This document shows positions 3,162 to 12,448 of a stretch of 27,079 bases of DNA, piece by piece. The DNA lies in assembly GCA_002315975.1 (NCBI GenBank), contig DCIK01000021.1, forward strand, positions 1 to 27,079, written 5' to 3'. The notes under the pieces are model-generated. The model saw only the letters and a list, made by a program, of their open reading frames with translations. It had not been told where the DNA came from and did not search any database. The number at the start of each line of letters is the position of its first letter. Positions within the stretch are counted from its first letter, which is position 1. This DNA comes from Clostridiales bacterium UBA1728 (GTDB lineage Bacteria > Bacillota > Clostridia > Oscillospirales > Oscillospiraceae). A program made the translations under genes and the position numbers.

Positions 3162-4445
3162 ATGGCAAATACTTTTGTCGATAAAGTCAATATCACCGTG
3201 CGCGCCGGTCGCGGCGGTGACGGTGCGGTGAGCTTTCACCGGGAAAAATACGTGGCTGCCGGCGGCCCCGACGGCGGTGACGGCGGCAAGGGCGGCGACA
3301 TCGTCTTTGTGGTAGACGAGCATATGTCCACCCTGCTGGACTTCCGTTATAAGCGGAAGTACATTGCCGGTGACGGTCAGAACGGGCAGAACAAGCGCTG
3401 CAGCGGCAAGGACGGTCAGACCCTGTATATCAAGGTGCCCCGGGGTACCCTGATTCGCCACAGGGAAAGCGGCGGTATCATGGCGGACCTGTCCGAGACC
3501 GCGCAGGTGACCATTGCCAGGGGCGGCAACGGCGGCTGGGGCAACCAGCACTTCGCCACGCCTACCCGGCAGGTGCCCCGCTTCGCCAAGCCCGGTCTGG
3601 AAGGCGAGGCCTTTGAGCTGACGCTGGAGCTGAAGCTCCTTGCCGATGTGGGTCTGGTGGGCTTCCCCAATGTGGGAAAGAGCACCCTGCTGAGCAGCGT
3701 GAGCCGTGCCCGGCCCAAGATCGCCGACTACCACTTCACCACCCTCTCCCCCAATCTGGGCGTGGTCTACATTGACGAGGGCGTGAGCTTCGTGCTGGCC
3801 GACATCCCCGGCATCATCGAGGGTGCCAGTGAGGGCGCCGGTCTGGGCCACGACTTCCTCCGGCACATTGACCGCTGCCGCCTGCTCATTCACGTGGTAG
3901 ACGGCTCCGGCAGCGAGGGCCGCGACCCCATTGAGGACTTTGAGGCCATCAACAAGGAGCTGCGGGAATACTCCCCCGAGCTCTCCAGGCGTCCCCAGAT
4001 CGTCTGCGCCAACAAGTGCGACATTCTTGGCGATGAACGGGAAGGTCTGGAGAAGCTGAAGGCCTATGTGGAGGCTCAGGGCTACGAATTCTACGAGATT
4101 TCCGCCGCCACCCAGAAGGGCGTACGGGAGCTCATGGGTCACGCCGCCGCACGCTTGCAGGAGCTGCCCCCCATCGCCGTCTACGAGCCCGACTATGTGC
4201 CCGTGGAGGAGAACCGGGGCGAGCCCGAGGATACCGAAATGCGTCTGGAGGGCGACACCTGGTATCTGGAGGGCGCATGGCTCTCCCGCATGGTGGCCCG
4301 CACCAACTTCACCGACTACGAAAGCCGGATGTACTTCGACCGCACCCTCCGCGACAACAACATCTATAAGATGCTGGAGGAGCGCGGCATTGTGGACGGA
4401 CAGTTTATCAATGTGGAAGGTCTGGAGTTCGAGTACCGGAGCTGA
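3162..4445 (+). CDS. obg: GTPase Obg/CgtA
   Basis: 427 aa. Glycine-rich Obg fold at the N-terminus (RAGRGGDGAVSFHREKYVAAGGPDGGDGGKGGDIVF), G1 motif GFPNVGKST, and a C-terminal OCT-like domain. Confidence 0.95.
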   Translation: MANTFVDKVNITVRAGRGGDGAVSFHREKYVAAGGPDGGDGGKGGDIVFVVDEHMSTLLDFRYKRKYIAGDGQNGQNKRCSGKDGQTLYIKVPRGTLIRHRESGGIMADLSETAQVTIARGGNGGWGNQHFATPTRQVPRFAKPGLEGEAFELTLELKLLADVGLVGFPNVGKSTLLSSVSRARPKIADYHFTTLSPNLGVVYIDEGVSFVLADIPGIIEGASEGAGLGHDFLRHIDRCRLLIHVVDGSGSEGRDPIEDFEAINKELREYSPELSRRPQIVCANKCDILGDEREGLEKLKAYVEAQGYEFYEISAATQKGVRELMGHAAARLQELPPIAVYEPDYVPVEENRGEPEDTEMRLEGDTWYLEGAWLSRMVARTNFTDYESRMYFDRTLRDNNIYKMLEERGIVDGQFINVEGLEFEYRS

Positions 4446-5514: not shown

Positions 5515-6600
5515 TTACACTCTCTTATACAGCTTGTTGTAATAGTTCAAAGAGTAGTTATACAGCTCGTCGCGGGCGATGGCGGCCTGATCGGGCTTGG
5601 TGCGGATGATGGCAACGCAGCGGCCGTTGGCACCGAACTTTTCCACATAGGCATCCACGGCATCGCGGGTCTGCTGCTCGTTCCACTGGGGATTGAGGTT
5701 CATGACAAAGCCGAAGGTCAGCTCCTTGTTGAAGTTGGCAAGCAGCTCGTCGGGGTCGTTGATGGGCTGCTGGGGGCTCCACATATCCACGCCCATGTCG
5801 ATCATCTCGGGGCAGTACTGGATGTTCTTGCCGCAGGAGTGGAGCTCGATGAACTTGCCCTGCGCCTTCAGGGTCTGGAAGAAGCGCTTGGTGGGGGGAA
5901 CGATGAACTCGCGGAACATCTCGTTGGAGTAGAAGCCGGCGCGCTGGGTACCCCAGTCGTCGTGGTAGAGGACGCCGTCCACGCGGCCATAGTTGTCGAT
6001 GACCTTCTGGCAGAGCTCGATCTTGTAGTCGGCCATCTTCTCCAGAAAGCGGTGCATGGCCTCGGGCTCGGTATAGAAGGAGAGCAGATACTCGTCAAAG
6101 GGCATCATCTCGTGAACACGCTCGGTGATGCCTTCCACGCACTGATAGACATGGGCGCGGTTGGGATCGAGGTTGGCGGCGAGCTTGGCACCGTCGGCCT
6201 TCCAGTCGGGGAGACTCAGGTCAGGCCAGTCAAAGTCGTTCTCCCAGTGCTCAAAGTCGTTGATGACGCGGGTGCCGGGCATGGTGATGGAGCCGCCGGC
6301 AGAGGGAACCCACTGCCACAGAACGCCCCACCAGTCGTAGTCGTCCACGGTTTCGGGGACGGGGTGCTCCTCGATGGCATCGGGCCAGATAGTGTTGGTG
6401 TCGTTGCCGGAAACGGGAATCCAGTAGGGCTGATTGCCGGTGACGGCGCGCTTATAGTTCTCGGCCACGGTCACAGGATAGTCACGGGCCTCCAGGGGAG
6501 CCTTGGGCTTCTGCATCATGGCGGGCATGGACTTGGGATCCTGCCAGTACCGGCTGTAGTCGCGCTCGGCGGCGCGCTGCATAAACTTGCTGACGCTCAT
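5515..6600 (-). CDS. uroporphyrinogen decarboxylase (URO-D) family protein, MtaA/CmuA-like, paralog 2
   Basis: Only the last 361 aa (MSVSKFMQRAAERDY...) of the 1019-aa ORF 5515-8574 look real. ATG at 6598-6600 is preceded by a GGAGGA RBS. Blocks HDDWGTQRAG and LHSCGK parallel the 66-1160 paralog. Confidence 0.6.
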   Translation of the reverse strand: MSVSKFMQRAAERDYSRYWQDPKSMPAMMQKPKAPLEARDYPVTVAENYKRAVTGNQPYWIPVSGNDTNTIWPDAIEEHPVPETVDDYDWWGVLWQWVPSAGGSITMPGTRVINDFEHWENDFDWPDLSLPDWKADGAKLAANLDPNRAHVYQCVEGITERVHEMMPFDEYLLSFYTEPEAMHRFLEKMADYKIELCQKVIDNYGRVDGVLYHDDWGTQRAGFYSNEMFREFIVPPTKRFFQTLKAQGKFIELHSCGKNIQYCPEMIDMGVDMWSPQQPINDPDELLANFNKELTFGFVMNLNPQWNEQQTRDAVDAYVEKFGANGRCVAIIRTKPDQAAIARDELYNYSLNYYNKLYKRV

Positions 6601-6786
6601 GTTCGTTCCTCCTATGTTTTGATATTGAGATTGCATTAAAACCTGTTCTATGCTATTATACTCATAAAATACGGCTCTTCCAATGGACAGGCGGCATAAT
6701 CTCACGGGTGTTTTTCCCCTGCGTTTTTGTGCAAATGCGTCCCGGAAGCCGGCAAGAGTCCAAGAGCTCAACGGGGAGAAGAGAGA

Positions 6787-8229
6787 ATGAAGCTTAGTAT
6801 GTGGATGATCGCCAACCGGCTCAGCGCCATGGATATGGAGACCGAGCTCTCCGAGGACGCGGGCGTTACCCTCAATTCCGCACGGCTGGCCTACGCCACC
6901 AACTGCGTCCATATCTACGCCGAGGGCAGCGATGTGGTCTGCAAGGGGGACGGCGGCACTCTCCGCTTCCGCAATATGGACCTGCGCACGGGCTTTGAGG
7001 TGGTGCAGAGCGTTTTCGATTACTTTGAGGACTGGAAGAGCTGTATGCAGGAGGACATCAACGCCCTGAATTTTCAGGCGGCCATCTCTCTTGCGTGGCA
7101 GGTGCTCCGGAACCCGCTCGTCCTCTTCGACGGCAACAACCGGGTGCTGGGCATCACGAGGCAGTACTCCCCCGACGCGCTGGATGTGGAATGGAGCTAC
7201 CTCTCCCGCTTCGGCTACTCCTCGCTGGACGCCGTCCGCTCCCTCCGCCGCAGCTCCCGACCTATGACGCTCCTGCGCAAAAGCGCCGTCCCCGGCGTTG
7301 TGGCCGCCGACACCGCGCAGGTGAACTACGGAAGCGCCACCTTCGCTCTGAGCTGGGGCGACATGAACTGCGGCAGACTTACGATTCTCTCCAGCGAGCG
7401 GCCCCTGAACCCCGGAGACTATCAGCTCATGGAGCTTCTGGTGCAGATGCTGGAGCCGGCGCTGGGGCAGATGTCCTACCGCAGCGAGAAAAGCTCTGCG
7501 GTGGACGTGTTTCTGAACCTGCTGCTGGGCAAGCCCTACGGGGAGGATCAGCTCAGCGCCCGTCTGCGCTACACCGCCTGGTCGGCGGAGGAGCTCTACT
7601 ATCTCTGCGTTCTGCGCATGGAAGGCGAGGAGGAAGGCCCGGAGCTCTACACCGGGCAGCTGCGCTCCATCCTCCAGAGCAATATTTATAATACCGTCGC
7701 GCTGAAAAACGAGGGCGATCTGATTCTCCTCAGTACCCGGGACCTGAGCCGGGACCCTGCCGCTCTGGAGGTTCTCGCCAGACTCCGGGAGAAGAACTCC
7801 CTGCGCATGGGCTTCAGCATCGCCAGCCGGGGCATCGTGGGCATCGGTGCCCTCTATGCCCAGACCCGCTACGCCCTCGCCCGCTTTGATTGGAGCAGTG
7901 GGCTCCCCTTCTGCCGCTTCTTTGATCTGGCCATTGACTATATGCTGGAAATGCCGCTGGGACAGGCGGTGAGCGCCGTGATGCCCTCGGTGCAGGCGCT
8001 GTGGCAGGAGTGCCGGGGCGGCGATGATCTGGTCAACACCCTCCGCTGCTACCTCCGCAACAACTGCTCCGCCGTCAAGACCGCCGGCGATCTCTACATT
8101 CACCGCAACACCGTCCTCTACCGGGTGCAGAAGGCCGAGGAGCAGCTGGGGCTGGACTTCCACCGCTGCTATGACCGGAGCTATTTCCTCATAGCCGTGA
8201 AAATTCTGGAGCTTAATTCTCGTTTTTAA
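6787..8229 (+). CDS. PucR/CdaR-family transcriptional regulator
   Basis: 480 aa from ATG 6787. C-terminal PucR-type HTH (TLRCYLRNNCSAVKTAGDLYIHRNTVLYRVQKAEEQLGLDF). Divergent from URO-D paralog 2. Confidence 0.75.
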   Translation: MKLSMWMIANRLSAMDMETELSEDAGVTLNSARLAYATNCVHIYAEGSDVVCKGDGGTLRFRNMDLRTGFEVVQSVFDYFEDWKSCMQEDINALNFQAAISLAWQVLRNPLVLFDGNNRVLGITRQYSPDALDVEWSYLSRFGYSSLDAVRSLRRSSRPMTLLRKSAVPGVVAADTAQVNYGSATFALSWGDMNCGRLTILSSERPLNPGDYQLMELLVQMLEPALGQMSYRSEKSSAVDVFLNLLLGKPYGEDQLSARLRYTAWSAEELYYLCVLRMEGEEEGPELYTGQLRSILQSNIYNTVALKNEGDLILLSTRDLSRDPAALEVLARLREKNSLRMGFSIASRGIVGIGALYAQTRYALARFDWSSGLPFCRFFDLAIDYMLEMPLGQAVSAVMPSVQALWQECRGGDDLVNTLRCYLRNNCSAVKTAGDLYIHRNTVLYRVQKAEEQLGLDFHRCYDRSYFLIAVKILELNSRF

Positions 8230-8259
8230 TCGAGAGCCGAAGAAAAGGAGCCGTGAGCT

Positions 8260-8637
8260 TTGAAACGCATTCTGTATTTTTTTGTCGCGGCGCTGCTGCT
8301 GGCGGGGCTCGCCGTCTATGCGCTGGGGCAGACTGTGGTGACCTCCGCCTATATCGGAAACTACAGCATTTCCGAGGACGGCAGCGAGCTGCGCTTTTCC
8401 GTAGGTGTGGGTAGCTCCATGGGATATGTCCGCTCCTATAAGGACGAGCACAGCGGAAACGAGCACTATCTGCGCTTCTATTACGCCTGGGGCGGCTTCA
8501 ACAGCCGCTGGGGTGCAAAGAGCGAGTACTTTCTCCCCCTCTCCCCCACCGACACCGCTATCTATGTAAAGCACAGCAAGGGCTATCAGCTCGCGCTGGA
8601 GAAAGACGCAGAAGGGGTTTGGGTGAGGGGTGAATAG
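8260..8637 (+). CDS. small secreted or membrane-anchored hypothetical protein
   Basis: 125-aa ORF with a TTG start 9 nt after AAAGGAG. N-terminal hydrophobic signal/anchor (ILYFFVAALLLAGLAVYALG). No family recognised. Confidence 0.45.
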   Translation: MKRILYFFVAALLLAGLAVYALGQTVVTSAYIGNYSISEDGSELRFSVGVGSSMGYVRSYKDEHSGNEHYLRFYYAWGGFNSRWGAKSEYFLPLSPTDTAIYVKHSKGYQLALEKDAEGVWVRGE

Positions 8638-8686
8638 GCCGCTCTACACTGCCATATTCCTGTAGACTTTTCTTTGTTCTTTACTA

Positions 8687-8714
8687 TTGACACCAATAAA
8701 TCATATGATATACT
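8687..8714 (+). promoter_or_regulatory. near-consensus sigmaA promoter of the TnpB-like nuclease gene
   Basis: TTGACA (8687-8692), 16-nt spacer, TG-extended TATACT (TGATATACT, 8706-8714). It lies downstream of the track's TTG start (8674), which argues for the GTG start at 8737. Confidence 0.6.
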
Positions 8715-8736
8715 TATGTTAAAGGAGGTGAGACAA

Positions 8737-10428
8737 GTGTCGGAAAGCTATTTAGAGCCCATATCAACCTATACCATGAAGCTGCGGCTATACCCCACAA
8801 AAGCGCAGGCAGAGCTCATAGACAAGGCTATCCGTGCGCTTCATCTCGCCTTTAATATGACCTTTCACGAGGTTTTCCAGAAGAACCCGGAGGTGTGCAC
8901 CCAGCCCAACGCAGAGGGGGCAGTCTGGCCGGATTTTAAGAAGATGACCGGGAAAGAATGGCGGCATCGACTGATTGAAATGAATCCGCTCATTGCCGAA
9001 GCACCCGCTCCCGCCATCATGCAAAACGGCGGTATCTTCATGAAAGAGGGGCGCGACGCATGGCCGGGAAACGGTCTTGGTTCAAAAAAGAAATTCTTTC
9101 CGGTTGATATTGTCAGGCGTGAGGATTTTCATTTTTACAGCCAGAATAAGCCGCGAAGAAACTTTACCGTACAGGTAGACGCAAAGAAAATCGTCCCGTC
9201 AGCAAGCAATCCAAAGGTCTGCACCATTGAGTTCCCCCTGTCCGACATCTATCCGGGTGGGAAAAAGCGCCCGAACACCACGGTAAAGGCCAGAGGTTTT
9301 AGCCGCAAGCTCCGTTTTGGAGAGAACGGAGAACACAACTTTGAAGAAGCACTTTCAAACGGAGAGCTGAAAAATGCTTACACCGTAAAGTTTTCCAAAG
9401 ACAATTGCGGCGACTACTACGCCTCCATTACCTTCTCTTGCGGGAAAACCGCCCGGCAAAGCCTGTTCCGTGAGCTGAAAGTCGAATCTGACATTCAGGA
9501 TGTCGGGATCGATGTTGGCATCAAGGATGTGGCCATACTCAGCGCCGGCGATAAGGTAGAAAACAAGCATTTCAAGCAAGCCCGCGACCACACGCTGCGG
9601 AAGCTGAACCGTCAGCTTTCCCGGCGCATGGGCCCGGCAAACATGGCCTATCGGGACTATAACAAAGCCATACGGGCAGAGAATCGCGCTCTCCCGGAGG
9701 GCGAGGAGCCAAAGCCGCTGATGACTCCCAGCAAGCGTTATCTGGAAACCCAGAGAAGAAAAGCGCGGCTGGAGCGGCGCATTGCCAGACAGCGAGAGAG
9801 CTACTATCATGAGCAAACGGAAAGGATTGTTTCCCATGCCTCTACCATTGCGGTGGAAACGCTCATGGTAAAGAATATGCTCCGCAATCACAAATTGGCT
9901 TTTGCCCTCGGTGATGCCGCCATGAGTGAGTTTGTCGCCATGCTCAAATATAAGGCCGAGCGGCGGCACATTCCGATTCTGACCATCGGCACCTTTGAGT
10001 CCTCCAGTCAGCTCTGCTCTGTCTGCGGCTTTCTGAACCCGGCGGTAAAAAATCTGGATATTCGGGAGTGGTGCTGCCCCCAGTGCGGCACAACCCATGA
10101 CCGGGATATCAACGCAGCAAAAAACATACTTGCTATCGCCCAACGAAAGGGCAGCAAGGAAGATATCGAAGAAAACATCAAAGGCCCGCCAAAGCGAAAG
10201 CCCGCCGAGCGCAAGCCAAAGGATACCATCATACTGGAGGACAGGCAGGAGCTGGTGGTGCGCTTCAGCCGGGAGCTGTCAAAATTCAATGCACCGCGTT
10301 ATGTAATCATCAACAAGACGGACGGCACCGTTATCGACGATGGTCAGGGTGCCGGATACAGAAGCATCAGCAACGCGAAAAACTGTTTCAAAGCGAAAAT
10401 GAACTGGTCTGCGAAAAACAAAGCATAA
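8737..10428 (+). CDS. TnpB-like / Cas12-family (type V-like) RuvC nuclease, CRISPR-associated
   Basis: 563 aa from GTG 8737, 8 nt after AGGAGG; alternative starts are TTG 8674 and ATG 8776. TnpB architecture: N-terminal YTMKLRLYPTKAQAELIDKAI, RuvC-I VGIDVGIKD (D codon 9511-9513), RuvC-II IAVETLMVKN (E codon 9856-9858). Also a Zn ribbon CSVCG...CPQCG and RuvC-III HDRDINAAKNI (10096-10128). A CRISPR array follows about 240 nt downstream. Confidence 0.85.
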   Translation: MSESYLEPISTYTMKLRLYPTKAQAELIDKAIRALHLAFNMTFHEVFQKNPEVCTQPNAEGAVWPDFKKMTGKEWRHRLIEMNPLIAEAPAPAIMQNGGIFMKEGRDAWPGNGLGSKKKFFPVDIVRREDFHFYSQNKPRRNFTVQVDAKKIVPSASNPKVCTIEFPLSDIYPGGKKRPNTTVKARGFSRKLRFGENGEHNFEEALSNGELKNAYTVKFSKDNCGDYYASITFSCGKTARQSLFRELKVESDIQDVGIDVGIKDVAILSAGDKVENKHFKQARDHTLRKLNRQLSRRMGPANMAYRDYNKAIRAENRALPEGEEPKPLMTPSKRYLETQRRKARLERRIARQRESYYHEQTERIVSHASTIAVETLMVKNMLRNHKLAFALGDAAMSEFVAMLKYKAERRHIPILTIGTFESSSQLCSVCGFLNPAVKNLDIREWCCPQCGTTHDRDINAAKNILAIAQRKGSKEDIEENIKGPPKRKPAERKPKDTIILEDRQELVVRFSRELSKFNAPRYVIINKTDGTVIDDGQGAGYRSISNAKNCFKAKMNWSAKNKA

Positions 10429-10439
10429 TTCCTGACAAA

Positions 10440-10640
10440 TAAGCAAAGCCGGTGGGAGGTCTGTCCCCACCGTTCTGCGCGAGGTTCCATCGAACACGTT
10501 TCGCTGGCCGCTTCGCACAGAGAACAGACATATCCAAAGTGCAAGGAGCAACAGACCGTTGTTTCGTGAGCAATCGCTGCAGCGGGTGACGCAACCCGGC
10601 ACGGATATGCCACCGTACATTTGTGCAAATGGCTTTTATT
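10440..10640 (+). ncRNA. candidate tracrRNA / omega-RNA-like scaffold ending in an anti-repeat
   Basis: CCGTACATTTGTGCAAATGGCTT (10613-10635) matches the reverse complement of repeat positions 2-24 at 21 of 23 nt and is followed by a T-rich tract. Upstream helices: GGTGGG/CCCACC (about 10451-10471), CGGGT/ACCCG, and a closing pair CATATCC (10529-10535) / GGATATG (10603-10609). The 5' end is not defined. Confidence 0.5.
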
Positions 10641-10667
10641 TTGCTTCATAAAGTGTGCAAATTTGCC

Positions 10668-10896
10668 GAAGCCACTTGCACAAGTGTACGGAGCAGAAGA
10701 CTCTAAAGTTAGCGTCTTTTTTAAAAACTTTAAGAAGCCACTTGCACAAGTGTACGGAGCAGAAGCAGTCTCTGACCGTGTCCTCCTCTCGGATCACAGA
10801 AGCCACTTGCACAAGTGTACGGAGCAGAAGCTCCACTGGGCGGAGCTCCGTCCAGCTCCGGCGGGAAGCCACTTGCACAAGTGTACAGAACTTGTG
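10668..10896 (+). CRISPR. CRISPR mini-array, 4 repeats and 3 spacers
   Basis: 32-nt repeat GAAGCCACTTGCACAAGTGTACGGAGCAGAAG at 10668, 10734 and 10799 (identical). The fourth copy at 10865 keeps the first 22 nt, then diverges. Unique spacers of 34, 33 and 34 nt; period 65-66. AT-rich leader upstream. Confidence 0.85.
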
Positions 10897-11016
10897 GGTG
10901 GCAACGATGAAGTAGGCCGCCCCTCATCCGTCACGGCTGCGCCGTGACACCTTCCCCAAGGGGGAAGGCAAGAGAAGCGCTGTATTTGCGTGCCCTCGCA
11001 TCGCTTTTTGACGAAT

Positions 11017-11050
11017 CAAAACACCCCTGCCGTTTGGCAGGGGTGTTTTC
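11017..11050. terminator. bidirectional rho-independent terminator
   Basis: AAAA-CACCCCTGCC (11022-11031), loop GTTT, GGCAGGGGTG (11036-11045), then TTTTCG. Sits between the CRISPR islet and the 3' end of the aminopeptidase gene. Confidence 0.75.
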
Positions 11051-11053
11051 GCT

Positions 11054-12448
11054 TTATCTGTCCTTATAGAAGCTCTTCATGCCCTTGTAGGTCATGTAGC
11101 AGTCGAACTTGGCCACGGTCTCGAAGGGGGCGTGCATACTCAGCACGGGCACACCGGCGTCGATGGTGTCGATGTTGCGGTTGGCCATGTAGAGAGCCAC
11201 GGTGCCGCCACCGCCCTGATCGACCTTGCCCAGCTCGGCCATCTGCCAGACCACGCCGTTTTGGGCGAAGATGCGCCGGAGCGTGCCCACCACCTCGGCA
11301 GCGGCATCGCTGGCGCCGGACTTGCCGCCGTGGCCGGTGAACTTGCAGATGCCCATGCCGTAGTTGACCTTGGCAGCGCTGCGCTTCTCGCAGACCTCGG
11401 GATAGAGGGGATCGAAGGCGTTGCACACATCGGCGCTGACGCAGAAGCTGTTCCAGAAGCAGTCGCGAAGCGCCACCTTCTGCGCGGCGCAAAGGCTCTC
11501 CATAAAGGCATCAAAGGCGCGGGACTGCATACCGCTCACGCCCATGGAGCCGATCTCCTCCTTGTCGGCCAGAATGCACACGGCGGTGCGCTCGGGCAGC
11601 TCGGTCTCGCAGATGGCGGCCAGCTCGGCAAAAGCGCAGACGCGGTCATCGTGGCCGTAGCCGCCGATGAGGGAGCGGTCCAGACCGATCTCGCACACAT
11701 CGAAGCAGGGCACAGCCTCCAGCTCGGCGGAGAGGAAGTCCTCCTCGGTGATGCCGTAGCGGTCGTGAAGCAGACTCATCACCGCCAGCTTCACCCGGTC
11801 GCTGCCCTCGTCGGCGTAGGGCACGGAGCCGATGAGCAGGTTCAGACCCTCGCCGCTGATGACCTGAGAGGCCACCTTGGCCATCTGATCCTTACCCAGA
11901 TGGGGCAGCAGGTCGGTGATGACGAACTTGGGCTCGTCCTTTTCGTGACCCATGACCACATCAATGGTCTCGCCGCTGCGCAGAGACACCACGCCGTGGA
12001 GCTCCAGCGGGATGGTCACCCACTGGTACTTCTTGATGCCGCCGTAGTAATGGGTTCTGAAGTAGGCCAGCTCGCTGTCTTCGTAGAGGGGAATCTGCTT
12101 CAGATCCAGCCGGGGCGCGTCCACATGGGCGGCGGCGATGTTGGCACCGAAGCTCAGATCCTTCAGGCCGATGACGGCCAGCAGCAGCGCCTTGCCCCGG
12201 TTGTTGAGATAGACCTTGGTGCCGGGGGTGAGGGGCATACCCTCGCTGTAGGGCACAAAACCCTTGCTCTCGGCGTAGGCGATGCCCTCCCGTACAGCCT
12301 CCCGCTCGGTGCGGGAAGCGTTCAGGTAGCTCATGTACTCGCCGCAGTAGCGCTCCAGCTCCAGCCGCTCCTCAGTGTCGATGAGATCATAGCCGTTCTT
12401 CTGGTTGTAAAAAAGCTCGTCGCGGAGATTCTTTTCCTGCTCAGCCAT
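11054..12448 (-). CDS. M18-family aminopeptidase
   Basis: 464 aa from ATG 12448 (AGGAGG RBS). M18-like motifs: AAHVDAPRLDLK, GYGHDDRVCAFA, ADKEEIGSMG, SADVCNAFDP, LSMHAPFE. Confidence 0.8.
   Translation of the reverse strand: MAEQEKNLRDELFYNQKNGYDLIDTEERLELERYCGEYMSYLNASRTEREAVREGIAYAESKGFVPYSEGMPLTPGTKVYLNNRGKALLLAVIGLKDLSFGANIAAAHVDAPRLDLKQIPLYEDSELAYFRTHYYGGIKKYQWVTIPLELHGVVSLRSGETIDVVMGHEKDEPKFVITDLLPHLGKDQMAKVASQVISGEGLNLLIGSVPYADEGSDRVKLAVMSLLHDRYGITEEDFLSAELEAVPCFDVCEIGLDRSLIGGYGHDDRVCAFAELAAICETELPERTAVCILADKEEIGSMGVSGMQSRAFDAFMESLCAAQKVALRDCFWNSFCVSADVCNAFDPLYPEVCEKRSAAKVNYGMGICKFTGHGGKSGASDAAAEVVGTLRRIFAQNGVVWQMAELGKVDQGGGGTVALYMANRNIDTIDAGVPVLSMHAPFETVAKFDCYMTYKGMKSFYKDR

Follow-up and report, generated by a model that had tools for sequence, protein, structure and literature searches.

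Organization of the locus

The DNA studied here is contig DCIK01000021.1 of Clostridiales bacterium UBA1728 (positions 1 to 27,079 of the forward strand, the whole of which is called the window below), in which the gene of a TnpB-derived RuvC nuclease is followed on the same strand by a structured region and by a CRISPR array. A first-pass annotation had placed a candidate tracrRNA (trans-activating CRISPR RNA) between this small type-V-like nuclease gene and the array. This placement is borne out by the homology of the effector to LaTranC, by the same RNA layout in a locus of the LaTranC cluster and by a covarying anti-repeat:repeat helix, and positions 10450-10636 very probably encode the tracrRNA of a stand-alone LaTranC-type TranC system, probably of clade 11 (Table 1). 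TranC systems are transposon-CRISPR intermediates, the guide of which consists of a tracrRNA plus a crRNA (CRISPR RNA) derived from a split right end element RNA (reRNA) (PMC13565253, PMC13639567).

The array carries the 32-nucleotide (nt) repeat GAAGCCACTTGCACAAGTGTACGGAGCAGAAG at 10668-10699, 10734-10765 and 10799-10830, and a fourth, terminal and degenerate copy with 6 mismatches at 10865-10896. The three spacers (10700-10733, 10766-10798 and 10831-10864) measure 34, 33 and 34 nt respectively. The scaffold is present only once in the window, and no cas1, cas2, cas4 or tnpA was found in these 27 kb.

Table 1. Positions of the effector gene, the predicted guide RNA elements, the array and the putative transcription signals in the window.
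Feature	Position	Strand	Details
Effector: TranC, TnpB-derived RuvC nuclease	8737..10428	+	563 amino acids from GTG 8737; LaTranC homology
Predicted tracrRNA stem 1	10450..10472	+	CGGUGGG-A-GG UCUG UCCCCACCG; 9 pairs, 4 compensatory, 97% of cells paired
Predicted tracrRNA stem 2	10473..10522	+	base GCGCGAGG 10477-10484 : CUUCGCAC 10511-10518; 8 pairs, 93% paired
Predicted tracrRNA stem 3	10529..10609	+	CAUAUCC 10529-10535 : GGAUAUG 10603-10609; 6 pairs, 4 compensatory, 96% paired
Anti-repeat	10613..10636	+	pairs with repeat nt 1-24: 21 Watson-Crick, 2 G:U, 1 A:C mismatch
Gap, anti-repeat to repeat 1 (leader or connecting loop)	10637..10667	+	31 nt; U-rich tract 10634-10642
CRISPR array	10668..10896	+	only array in the window
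Putative promoter-like site	8687..8714	+	TTGACA, 16 nt spacer, TATACT, with TG; 11/12 consensus matches
Bidirectional intrinsic terminator, strong	11018..11049	.	perfect 14-bp stem, A and T runs on the flanks

Identity of the effector

The longest open reading frame (ORF) of the effector (8674-10428, TTG start at 8674) has the promoter-like site 8687-8714 inside it. Therefore, GTG 8737 is the likelier start codon, in agreement with a 100% identical metagenome protein of 563 amino acids. Chain A of the LaTranC structure 9JFQ in the PDB was matched with E=3e-185 between ORF residues 30-582 and chain residues 14-573, C-terminal domain included, the LaTranC chains of 9JFO and 9JFP also matching over essentially the entire length, and the UniRef entry named LaTranC shows 52% identity at 95% coverage. 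The RuvC triad D259 (9511-9513), E374 (9856-9858) and D457 (10105-10107) and the four cysteines of a CxxC...CxxC zinc finger (C427, C430, C447 and C450, within 10015-10086) are kept in the window protein and are invariant among the 19 family members of the protein alignment.

Pfam and NCBIfam models place the effector in the TnpB/Cas12f superfamily. The guided_TnpB model of NCBIfam, which describes a broad subfamily, was passed with 171.7 bits (cut-off 100), and no Cas12 or IS200 equivalog model of NCBIfam was passed, IS200_TnpB scoring 208.7 bits against a cut-off of 425 and CRISPR_Cas12f2 48.7 bits against 450.

A covarying RNA scaffold upstream of the anti-repeat

Homologous loci were fetched from 13 further effector lineages of 50-72% protein identity, including one member of the LaTranC 90% cluster. 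Pattern scans of genome and metagenome contigs returned 160 loci of which 3 were true relatives, one of the two back-translated patterns being generic to TnpB, and further relatives were then collected protein by protein. LaTranC's own contig (L177) is too short to contain the RNA; the cluster member P0124 was used instead (loci L178-L180). The RNA comparison covers 16 aligned loci, and the covariance model was searched in 23 TranC-type sources (the window and 22 fetched loci) and in about 155 generic TnpB loci.

Three stems were found before the anti-repeat, as the first-pass annotation had proposed a structured scaffold there, with the difference that the structure starts near 10450 and not at 10429 and takes up roughly 165 nt (10450-10612); the CATATCC/GGATATG pair that it had pointed out is present and forms the base of a conserved helix, stem 3. 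Folding of the tracrRNA region together with the first repeat (10450-10699), a check proposed at that stage, gave the three scaffold stems plus the anti-repeat:repeat duplex at -108.8 kcal/mol, compared with -76.9 +/- 5.0 kcal/mol for shuffled sequences (z = -6.3). The same four helices were obtained independently by RNAalifold on the aligned loci, with compensatory changes in 27 of 43 pairs. This 43-pair structure leaves 93.1% of the cells paired, against 32-52% after displacement of the 3' partners by 1-3 columns, and none of 500 shuffles matched any of the observed pairing measures. Within the helices, G:U cells outnumber A:C cells (61 vs 18), which favours the + strand as the RNA.

All 13 other lineages keep this layout, with effector, scaffold, anti-repeat, gap and array following one another in this order on a single strand. 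In these loci the scaffold opens 20-110 nt after the effector gene with the hairpin GGYGGGAGGUCUGUCCCCRCC and continues with a GCGAAC/GUUCGC stem, a CAUAUC/GAUAUG stem, the anti-repeat, the gap and 32-nt repeats ending in GAGCAGAAG. The inner 12 nt of stem 1 (GAGGUCUGUCCC, 10456-10467 in the window) are invariant in all loci; this motif occurs once per TranC-type locus and in none of the generic TnpB loci, and a scan of IMG/VR gave four chance matches only, none with a scaffold behind it. Stem 2 bears a clade-specific apical hairpin, and the interior of stem 3 is about 25 nt longer in the window clade than in other clades. The covariance model, built on the tracrRNA alone, recovered all 23 TranC-type sources with 95-147 bits and one match per locus (window, 107.7 bits; LaTranC-cluster locus L178, 127 bits), while nothing credible was found among the generic TnpB loci. 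A scan of 8000-11200 against Rfam returned no family in 10429-10699 at E<=1.

A further positional covariation was observed between the loop of stem 2 and the inside of stem 3. In 11 of 14 lineages the loop of stem 2 (AUUGCC) has its complement in the interior of stem 3 (GGCAAU; 4290-4296 and 4350-4356 in L178), and the two sites change together in L176 (UUGUC/GACAA), L163 (CUUGCC/GGCAAG), L169 (UGCCGG/CCGGCA) and L166 (AAAUCCG/CGGAUUU), CACCGAA/UUCGGUG standing at these sites in L161/L162. The window has only weak candidates for such a pairing, at about 10488-10508 and 10575-10590. Judged from positional covariation only, this looks like a long-range pseudoknot, and its energy compared with shuffles was non-significant locus by locus.

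The anti-repeat:repeat duplex

Besides the four repeats themselves, a search of the window for repeat nt 2-24 allowing up to 3 mismatches found a single further match, on the minus strand at 10613-10635 (2 mismatches), while shuffles of the window gave no match. The complementarity claimed at first for this segment, with one G:U and one A:C as its exceptions, is confirmed, and it reaches one position past 10635 through the pair U10636:G10668, which adds repeat nt 1. The pairing covers repeat nt 1-24 and far outruns the internal palindrome ACTTGCACAAGT of the repeat, as had been argued. The T-tract TTTTATTTT said to follow the anti-repeat was found at 10634-10642, and the distance of 32 nt from 10635 to repeat 1 was confirmed.

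The covariation among homologous loci that the first-pass annotation had called for was obtained. Over the aligned loci the anti-repeat:repeat helix has 20 pairs with 90.6% of the cells paired, and 17 of these pairs show changes on both sides, so that the complementarity is kept by compensatory substitution; in L174, for example, the anti-repeat reads CTGCGCGCTTATGTGAGATGCTCC opposite the repeat GGAACATCTCTCATAAGCGTGCAG. According to RNAduplex the anti-repeat was the best duplex partner of the repeat for 14 of 16 rows; the program put the duplex about 16 nt further downstream in L081 and L173, the loci with the weakest pairing.

The imperfections of the duplex recur as well. A U:G wobble at anti-repeat position 8 (10620:10684 in the window) is found in 11 of 16 loci, the LaTranC cluster included, and a mismatch or bulge around anti-repeat positions 17-18 (10629 versus 10675 in the window) recurs among loci. 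Because both recur, these exceptions look like kept features of the duplex rather than decay.

The gap, the repeat tail and the possibility of a covalent guide

The gap between anti-repeat and array contains the motifs TTGCTTCAT (10641-10649) and TGTGCA..TTTGCC (10654-10667), both kept across clades with differing repeats. These motifs may be promoter or leader elements of the array, and the gap could hold the terminator of the tracrRNA, an array promoter, or both; a search for an array promoter in the gap found -35/-10 spacings that are inconsistent among loci. The anti-repeat itself is able to fold into a hairpin of low stability (-8.3 kcal/mol, z = -0.97), which is followed by the U-tract UUUUAUUUU. 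The length of the gap is 27-31 nt in the window clade and 40-47 nt in most others, with 25 nt in L081/L173, where the duplex placed by RNAduplex is shifted. A TTGCTTC within the gap does not track the changes of the repeat 5' end, unlike the real end of the anti-repeat.

The first-pass annotation had proposed that read-through into repeat 1 would give a covalent hairpin. In this reading the tracrRNA, the 31-nt gap, repeat 1 and spacer 1 would be made and used as one reRNA-like RNA, a natural single guide that is compatible with dual-RNA use for spacers 2 and 3. No promoter and no terminator was called by the consensus scan from the effector gene to the array, which makes co-transcription plausible, and the contiguous sequence folds into just such a hairpin with the z-score given above. 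The gap is also shortest in the window clade, and the family is thought to have descended from a single reRNA (PMC13565253). On the other hand, a covalent guide could serve spacer 1 only, the hairpin and UUUUAUUUU after the anti-repeat may end the tracrRNA, and the gap motifs TTGCTTCAT and TGTGCA..TTGCC are conserved across clades in a manner that is more promoter- or leader-like than loop-like. Furthermore, the natural guide of the family is described in secondary sources as a reRNA that was split, tracrRNA and crRNA being separate molecules. The hairpin of the initial proposal and the lack of a called terminator agree with a covalent guide, possible termination at the U-tract and a gap that is not conserved as a loop speak against it, and as the natural form it is considered unlikely.

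The other part of the initial proposal, that eight repeat nucleotides stay single-stranded next to the spacer, has to be modified. The 8-9 nt at the 3' end of the repeat (GAGCAGAAG), which adjoin the spacer, are invariant in 16 of 16 loci while the remaining repeat is variable, and they are complementary to the stem-1 loop and, in the window clade, to the linker that follows stem 1, so that a passive strand is unlikely. The only complement to the tail found in every locus is UCUGU of the invariant stem-1 loop, facing GCAGA of the tail; with invariant sequence on both sides, this pairing lies outside what covariation can test. In the window, the linker UUCUGC (10473-10478) is in addition complementary to GCAGAA of the tail (10693-10698), and the minimum-free-energy fold of the tracrRNA with repeat 1 pairs the two. 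When the tracrRNA is folded alone, the same linker region lengthens stem 2 via CAGAG 10518-10522 (UUCU 10473-10476 with AGAG 10519-10522) and so competes with the pairing to the repeat tail. The linker may serve as a second anti-repeat or as a conformational switch that depends on the crRNA. This complement is confined to the window clade, L161 having UUUCUGU (4252-4258) versus GCAGAA(G).

In Cas12f and TnpB guides, the guide-proximal segment joins a pseudoknot or a triplex. By this analogy, and because the single guide RNA (sgRNA) of LaTranC is described with a triplex, the tail is expected in a tertiary or protein contact, and its invariance suggests such a contact rather than a free linker. 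In the subclade formed by the window and L161/L162, the gap has shrunk to 27-31 nt with no recognisable promoter in it, and the linker has gained a 6-7-nt complement of the tail. From these features it is conceivable, though quite improbable, that the split guide has been partly re-joined in this subclade (as a covalent guide for the first spacer) or re-clamped (with the linker as a second anti-repeat). If true, this would be a living case of the tracrRNA/crRNA split reversing or caught midway.

Array turnover and targets

The far-end repeat is degenerate and related loci gain spacers on the tracrRNA-proximal side, which places the leader on the tracrRNA side of the array. A related genome (L161/L162) carries, at the chromosomal site that corresponds to that of the window locus, a locus with wholly different spacers; its flanks are 83-89% identical to those of the window at the nucleotide level and its effector-tracrRNA segment 71%. 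Identical effectors were also found with unequal arrays: L167 and L168 (4 or more vs 1 repeats), L170 and L171 (20 vs 1) and L174 and L175 (6 vs 2). The trailer-end spacer is common to both loci in the pairs L167/L168 and L174/L175, with the extra spacers on the tracrRNA side. These differences fit a polarised acquisition in trans, or deletions, for a system without adaptation genes of its own. In the LaTranC-cluster locus L178 (4482-4647), spacers 3-4 are an exact copy of spacers 1-2, a tandem duplication of two units which L179, otherwise identical to L178, does not have.

The first 21 nt of spacer 1 (10700-10720, ACTCTAAAGTTAGCGTCTTTT) match exactly a viral contig of IMG/VR, IMGVR_UViG_3300049924_000050 (L185, 2414-2434, minus strand), directly 3' of TTC. 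The other 13 nt of the spacer are unmatched there (3/13), leaving a match of 21 of 34 nt that may represent either a protospacer that has diverged or a 21-mer shared by chance and is weak evidence. The same-site locus with different spacers, the array turnover and this match support an active, host-domesticated defence role.

The turnover also bears on whether the scaffold could be the omega RNA (reRNA) of an active IS200/IS605-type TnpB transposon, serving transposon maintenance with the repeats being incidental. The effector is indeed a TnpB-family member and the RNA lies 3' of the gene, like omega RNAs. However, there is no tnpA, the scaffold is single-copy in the window, and the related genome has the locus at this same site of its chromosome. 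The guide position is filled by arrays of 1-20 repeat-spacer units with spacers varying between samples. In addition, the IS200_TnpB score is well below its cut-off and the covariance model finds nothing in the generic TnpB loci. A mobile IS200/IS605 element was therefore rejected, and this reading is highly improbable. That the anti-repeat is a decayed inverted copy of the repeat, or a leader hairpin or terminator of the array with no trans-acting role, would agree with its position at the leader end of the array, its own partly palindromic sequence and the U-tract directly after it, but has next to no probability, as a relic would not hold complementarity through 17 compensatory pair changes across very different repeats and would not always be joined to a scaffold of about 140-165 nt that is conserved, covaries and has an invariant 12-nt motif exclusive to the loci of these effectors; a chance inverted repeat or palindrome artefact was rejected on the same two grounds.

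Assignment to the TranC family and proposed mode of action

Together with the protein homology, the covarying scaffold and duplex identify a real, conserved tracrRNA, but a fresh example of a system described in 2025. The literature has this class depend on a tracrRNA that lies between effector and array (bioRxiv 10.64898/2026.03.27.714800, and Jin et al., Cell 2025, cited both by that preprint and by PMC13565253), and LaTranC-type TranC is reported to be able to use reRNA as well as tracrRNA and crRNA. Clade 11 is characterized by 32-36-bp repeats, 3-17 per array, by monomeric effectors with expanded REC/WED domains and a C-terminal domain, and by the lack of linked adaptation genes (bioRxiv 10.64898/2026.03.27.714800). 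The window has four 32-nt repeats in a single array with no cas1, cas2 or cas4 in the neighbourhood, and its effector, its catalytic residues and its tracrRNA homology agree with this clade as well. From the published texts we infer that LaTranC itself belongs to clade 11. For LaTranC, bioRxiv 10.1101/2025.09.28.678669 gives a 5'-TTC protospacer-adjacent motif (PAM), an sgRNA with Stem1-3 and a triplex, and an engineered sgC2 scaffold of about 157 nt.

By analogy with this published family, from which RNA expression and processing, tracrRNA dependence, PAM and DNA cleavage are transferred, the following course of events is proposed. The + strand would be transcribed, probably from the promoter-like site upstream of the effector gene and perhaps from a second start in the gap, and the RNA would fold into stems 1 to 3. 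The 24-nt anti-repeat would then pair with nt 1-24 of every pre-crRNA repeat, the leftover repeat nucleotides (GAGCAGAAG) joining the duplex to the spacer-derived guide on the 3' side. The 563-amino-acid nuclease would bind this dual RNA as a monomer, read a short 5' PAM (TTC in LaTranC) and cut complementary double-stranded DNA, and the system as a whole would act as a minimal defence module without adaptation genes of its own.

Several observations weigh against this assignment. The ends of the RNA at this locus, its processing and the dependence on the tracrRNA are taken from homologues, presumably applying here, and the effector shares only about 52% identity with the characterised LaTranC. 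The interiors of stems 2 and 3 deviate from those of other clades, stem 3 by its additional 25 nt or so, and the TTGCC/GGCAA motif of the stem-2-loop/stem-3 pseudoknot of other clades is unapparent in the window. As for targets, the lone match of 21 of 34 nt could be due to chance in a collection of the size of IMG/VR, GenBank phages and PLSDB plasmids contained no match by BLAST to any of 81 unique spacers, and of seven exact-seed scans of IMG/VR one gave this partial match and six gave none.

The LaTranC-type tracrRNA assignment adds to a compact monomeric nuclease family, already under engineering for genome editing, a divergent LaTranC orthologue with its full predicted guide architecture, and leaves the understanding of the class unchanged. 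The alignment yields covarying stems, a conserved wobble and imperfection in the duplex, an invariant stem-1 loop and repeat tail, and a pseudoknot candidate, and may aid sgRNA design and inform how the TnpB reRNA was split into tracrRNA and crRNA. What goes beyond the accessible literature is the comparative RNA model and the subclade peculiarities only.

Transcription signals and neighbouring genes

Apart from an overlapping call at 8680-8709, the site 8687-8714 is the sole sigma-70-like site found by the consensus scan ahead of the effector-tracrRNA-array unit; it is a putative promoter, as judged from its match to the consensus. The remaining promoter-like call (9782-9810) falls within the effector gene, and the scan found no terminator from 8714 up to 11018. 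The terminator at 11018-11049 would close both this unit and the convergent gene of an M18 aminopeptidase. Between the degenerate last repeat and this terminator, two perfect 8-bp hairpins stand back to back at 10930-10968 (GTCACGGC/GCCGTGAC and CCTTCCCC/GGGGAAGG).

The window otherwise codes for housekeeping functions: URO-D-family proteins, ClpP, a PucR-type regulator, the M18 aminopeptidase, Sua5/CoaE, RF-1, FBPase and transporters. The URO-D-family (methyltransferase-like) paralogues at 66-1160 and 5515-6600, on the minus strand and about 4 kb apart, share a 79-nt stretch of 72% nucleotide identity (BLAST against L161). Compared with the syntenic L161, the window has about 2.1 kb more (6618-8704) between a URO-D-family gene and the effector, encoding a PucR-type helix-turn-helix regulator (6727-8229) and a 125-amino-acid protein with a hydrophobic N-terminal segment (8260-8637). 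L161 instead carries a RelB/ParE pair between ClpP and URO-D.

Comparison with known systems

Among the known relatives, Cas12n (type V-U4; PDB 9J09) shares with the window system a small early-branching TnpB-like effector, a tracrRNA, a mini-array and the lack of an adaptation module. Its tracrRNA shares sequence with the 3' end of the ORF, which is dispensable, whereas that of the window begins past the stop codon, with the C-terminal domain of the effector conserved; the similarity of the proteins is weak (E=1.4e-8), and an identity as Cas12n was rejected. Cas12f (type V-F) is likewise a miniature TnpB-derived RuvC effector with a long multi-stem tracrRNA between gene and array and a repeat:anti-repeat duplex. 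In Cas12f structures this duplex is followed by a short repeat segment next to the guide, which takes part in a second repeat:anti-repeat or pseudoknot contact, and some Cas12f loci carry cas1, cas2 and cas4. Cas12f is active as an asymmetric dimer, TranC clade 11 reportedly as a monomer. The sequence similarity is marginal, limited for PDB 9NZQ to residues 369-486 in the RuvC/zinc-finger region (E=3.8e-4) with 48.7 bits of the 450 required by the NCBIfam model, and an identity as Cas12f was rejected.

With the TnpB of IS200/IS605 elements (ISDra2, PDB 8H1J and 8BF8), presumed to be the ancestor of the window system, the effector shares the RuvC and zinc-finger core (E about 3e-33, residues 353-487), and in both systems the scaffold lies at or past the gene's 3' end and is followed on its 3' side by the guide. 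The omega RNA is however one molecule with one guide set by the transposon end, while the window has a scaffold that an anti-repeat:repeat junction separates from the guide, guides supplied by an array, an expanded N-terminal half (REC/WED) of the effector and no transposon context.

LaTranC (Jin et al., Cell 2025, doi 10.1016/j.cell.2025.09.004; PDB 9JFO, 9JFP and 9JFQ; engineered as TranC11a) is homologous over the full length of the effector and has the same organization of a stand-alone effector, a tracrRNA and a short array of 32-nt repeats without adaptation genes. The two differ in about 48% of the protein and in the variable part of the repeat (GCCACTTGCACAAGTGTAC in the window, GCACTTCACAGAAGTGCAT in LaTranC). 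The window also has a stem 3 about 25 nt longer, a remodelled stem-2 apex, a gap of 31 nt against about 43 nt, and a linker after stem 1 whose UUCUGC complements the repeat tail, which the LaTranC linker does not. The RNA plan is nonetheless common to both: stem 1 with GAGGUCUGUCCC, stem 2 with GCGAAC/GUUCGC, stem 3 with CAUAUC/GAUAUG, a 24-nt anti-repeat with the same U:G wobble at position 8 and imperfection near positions 17-18, and the repeat tail GAGCAGAAG.

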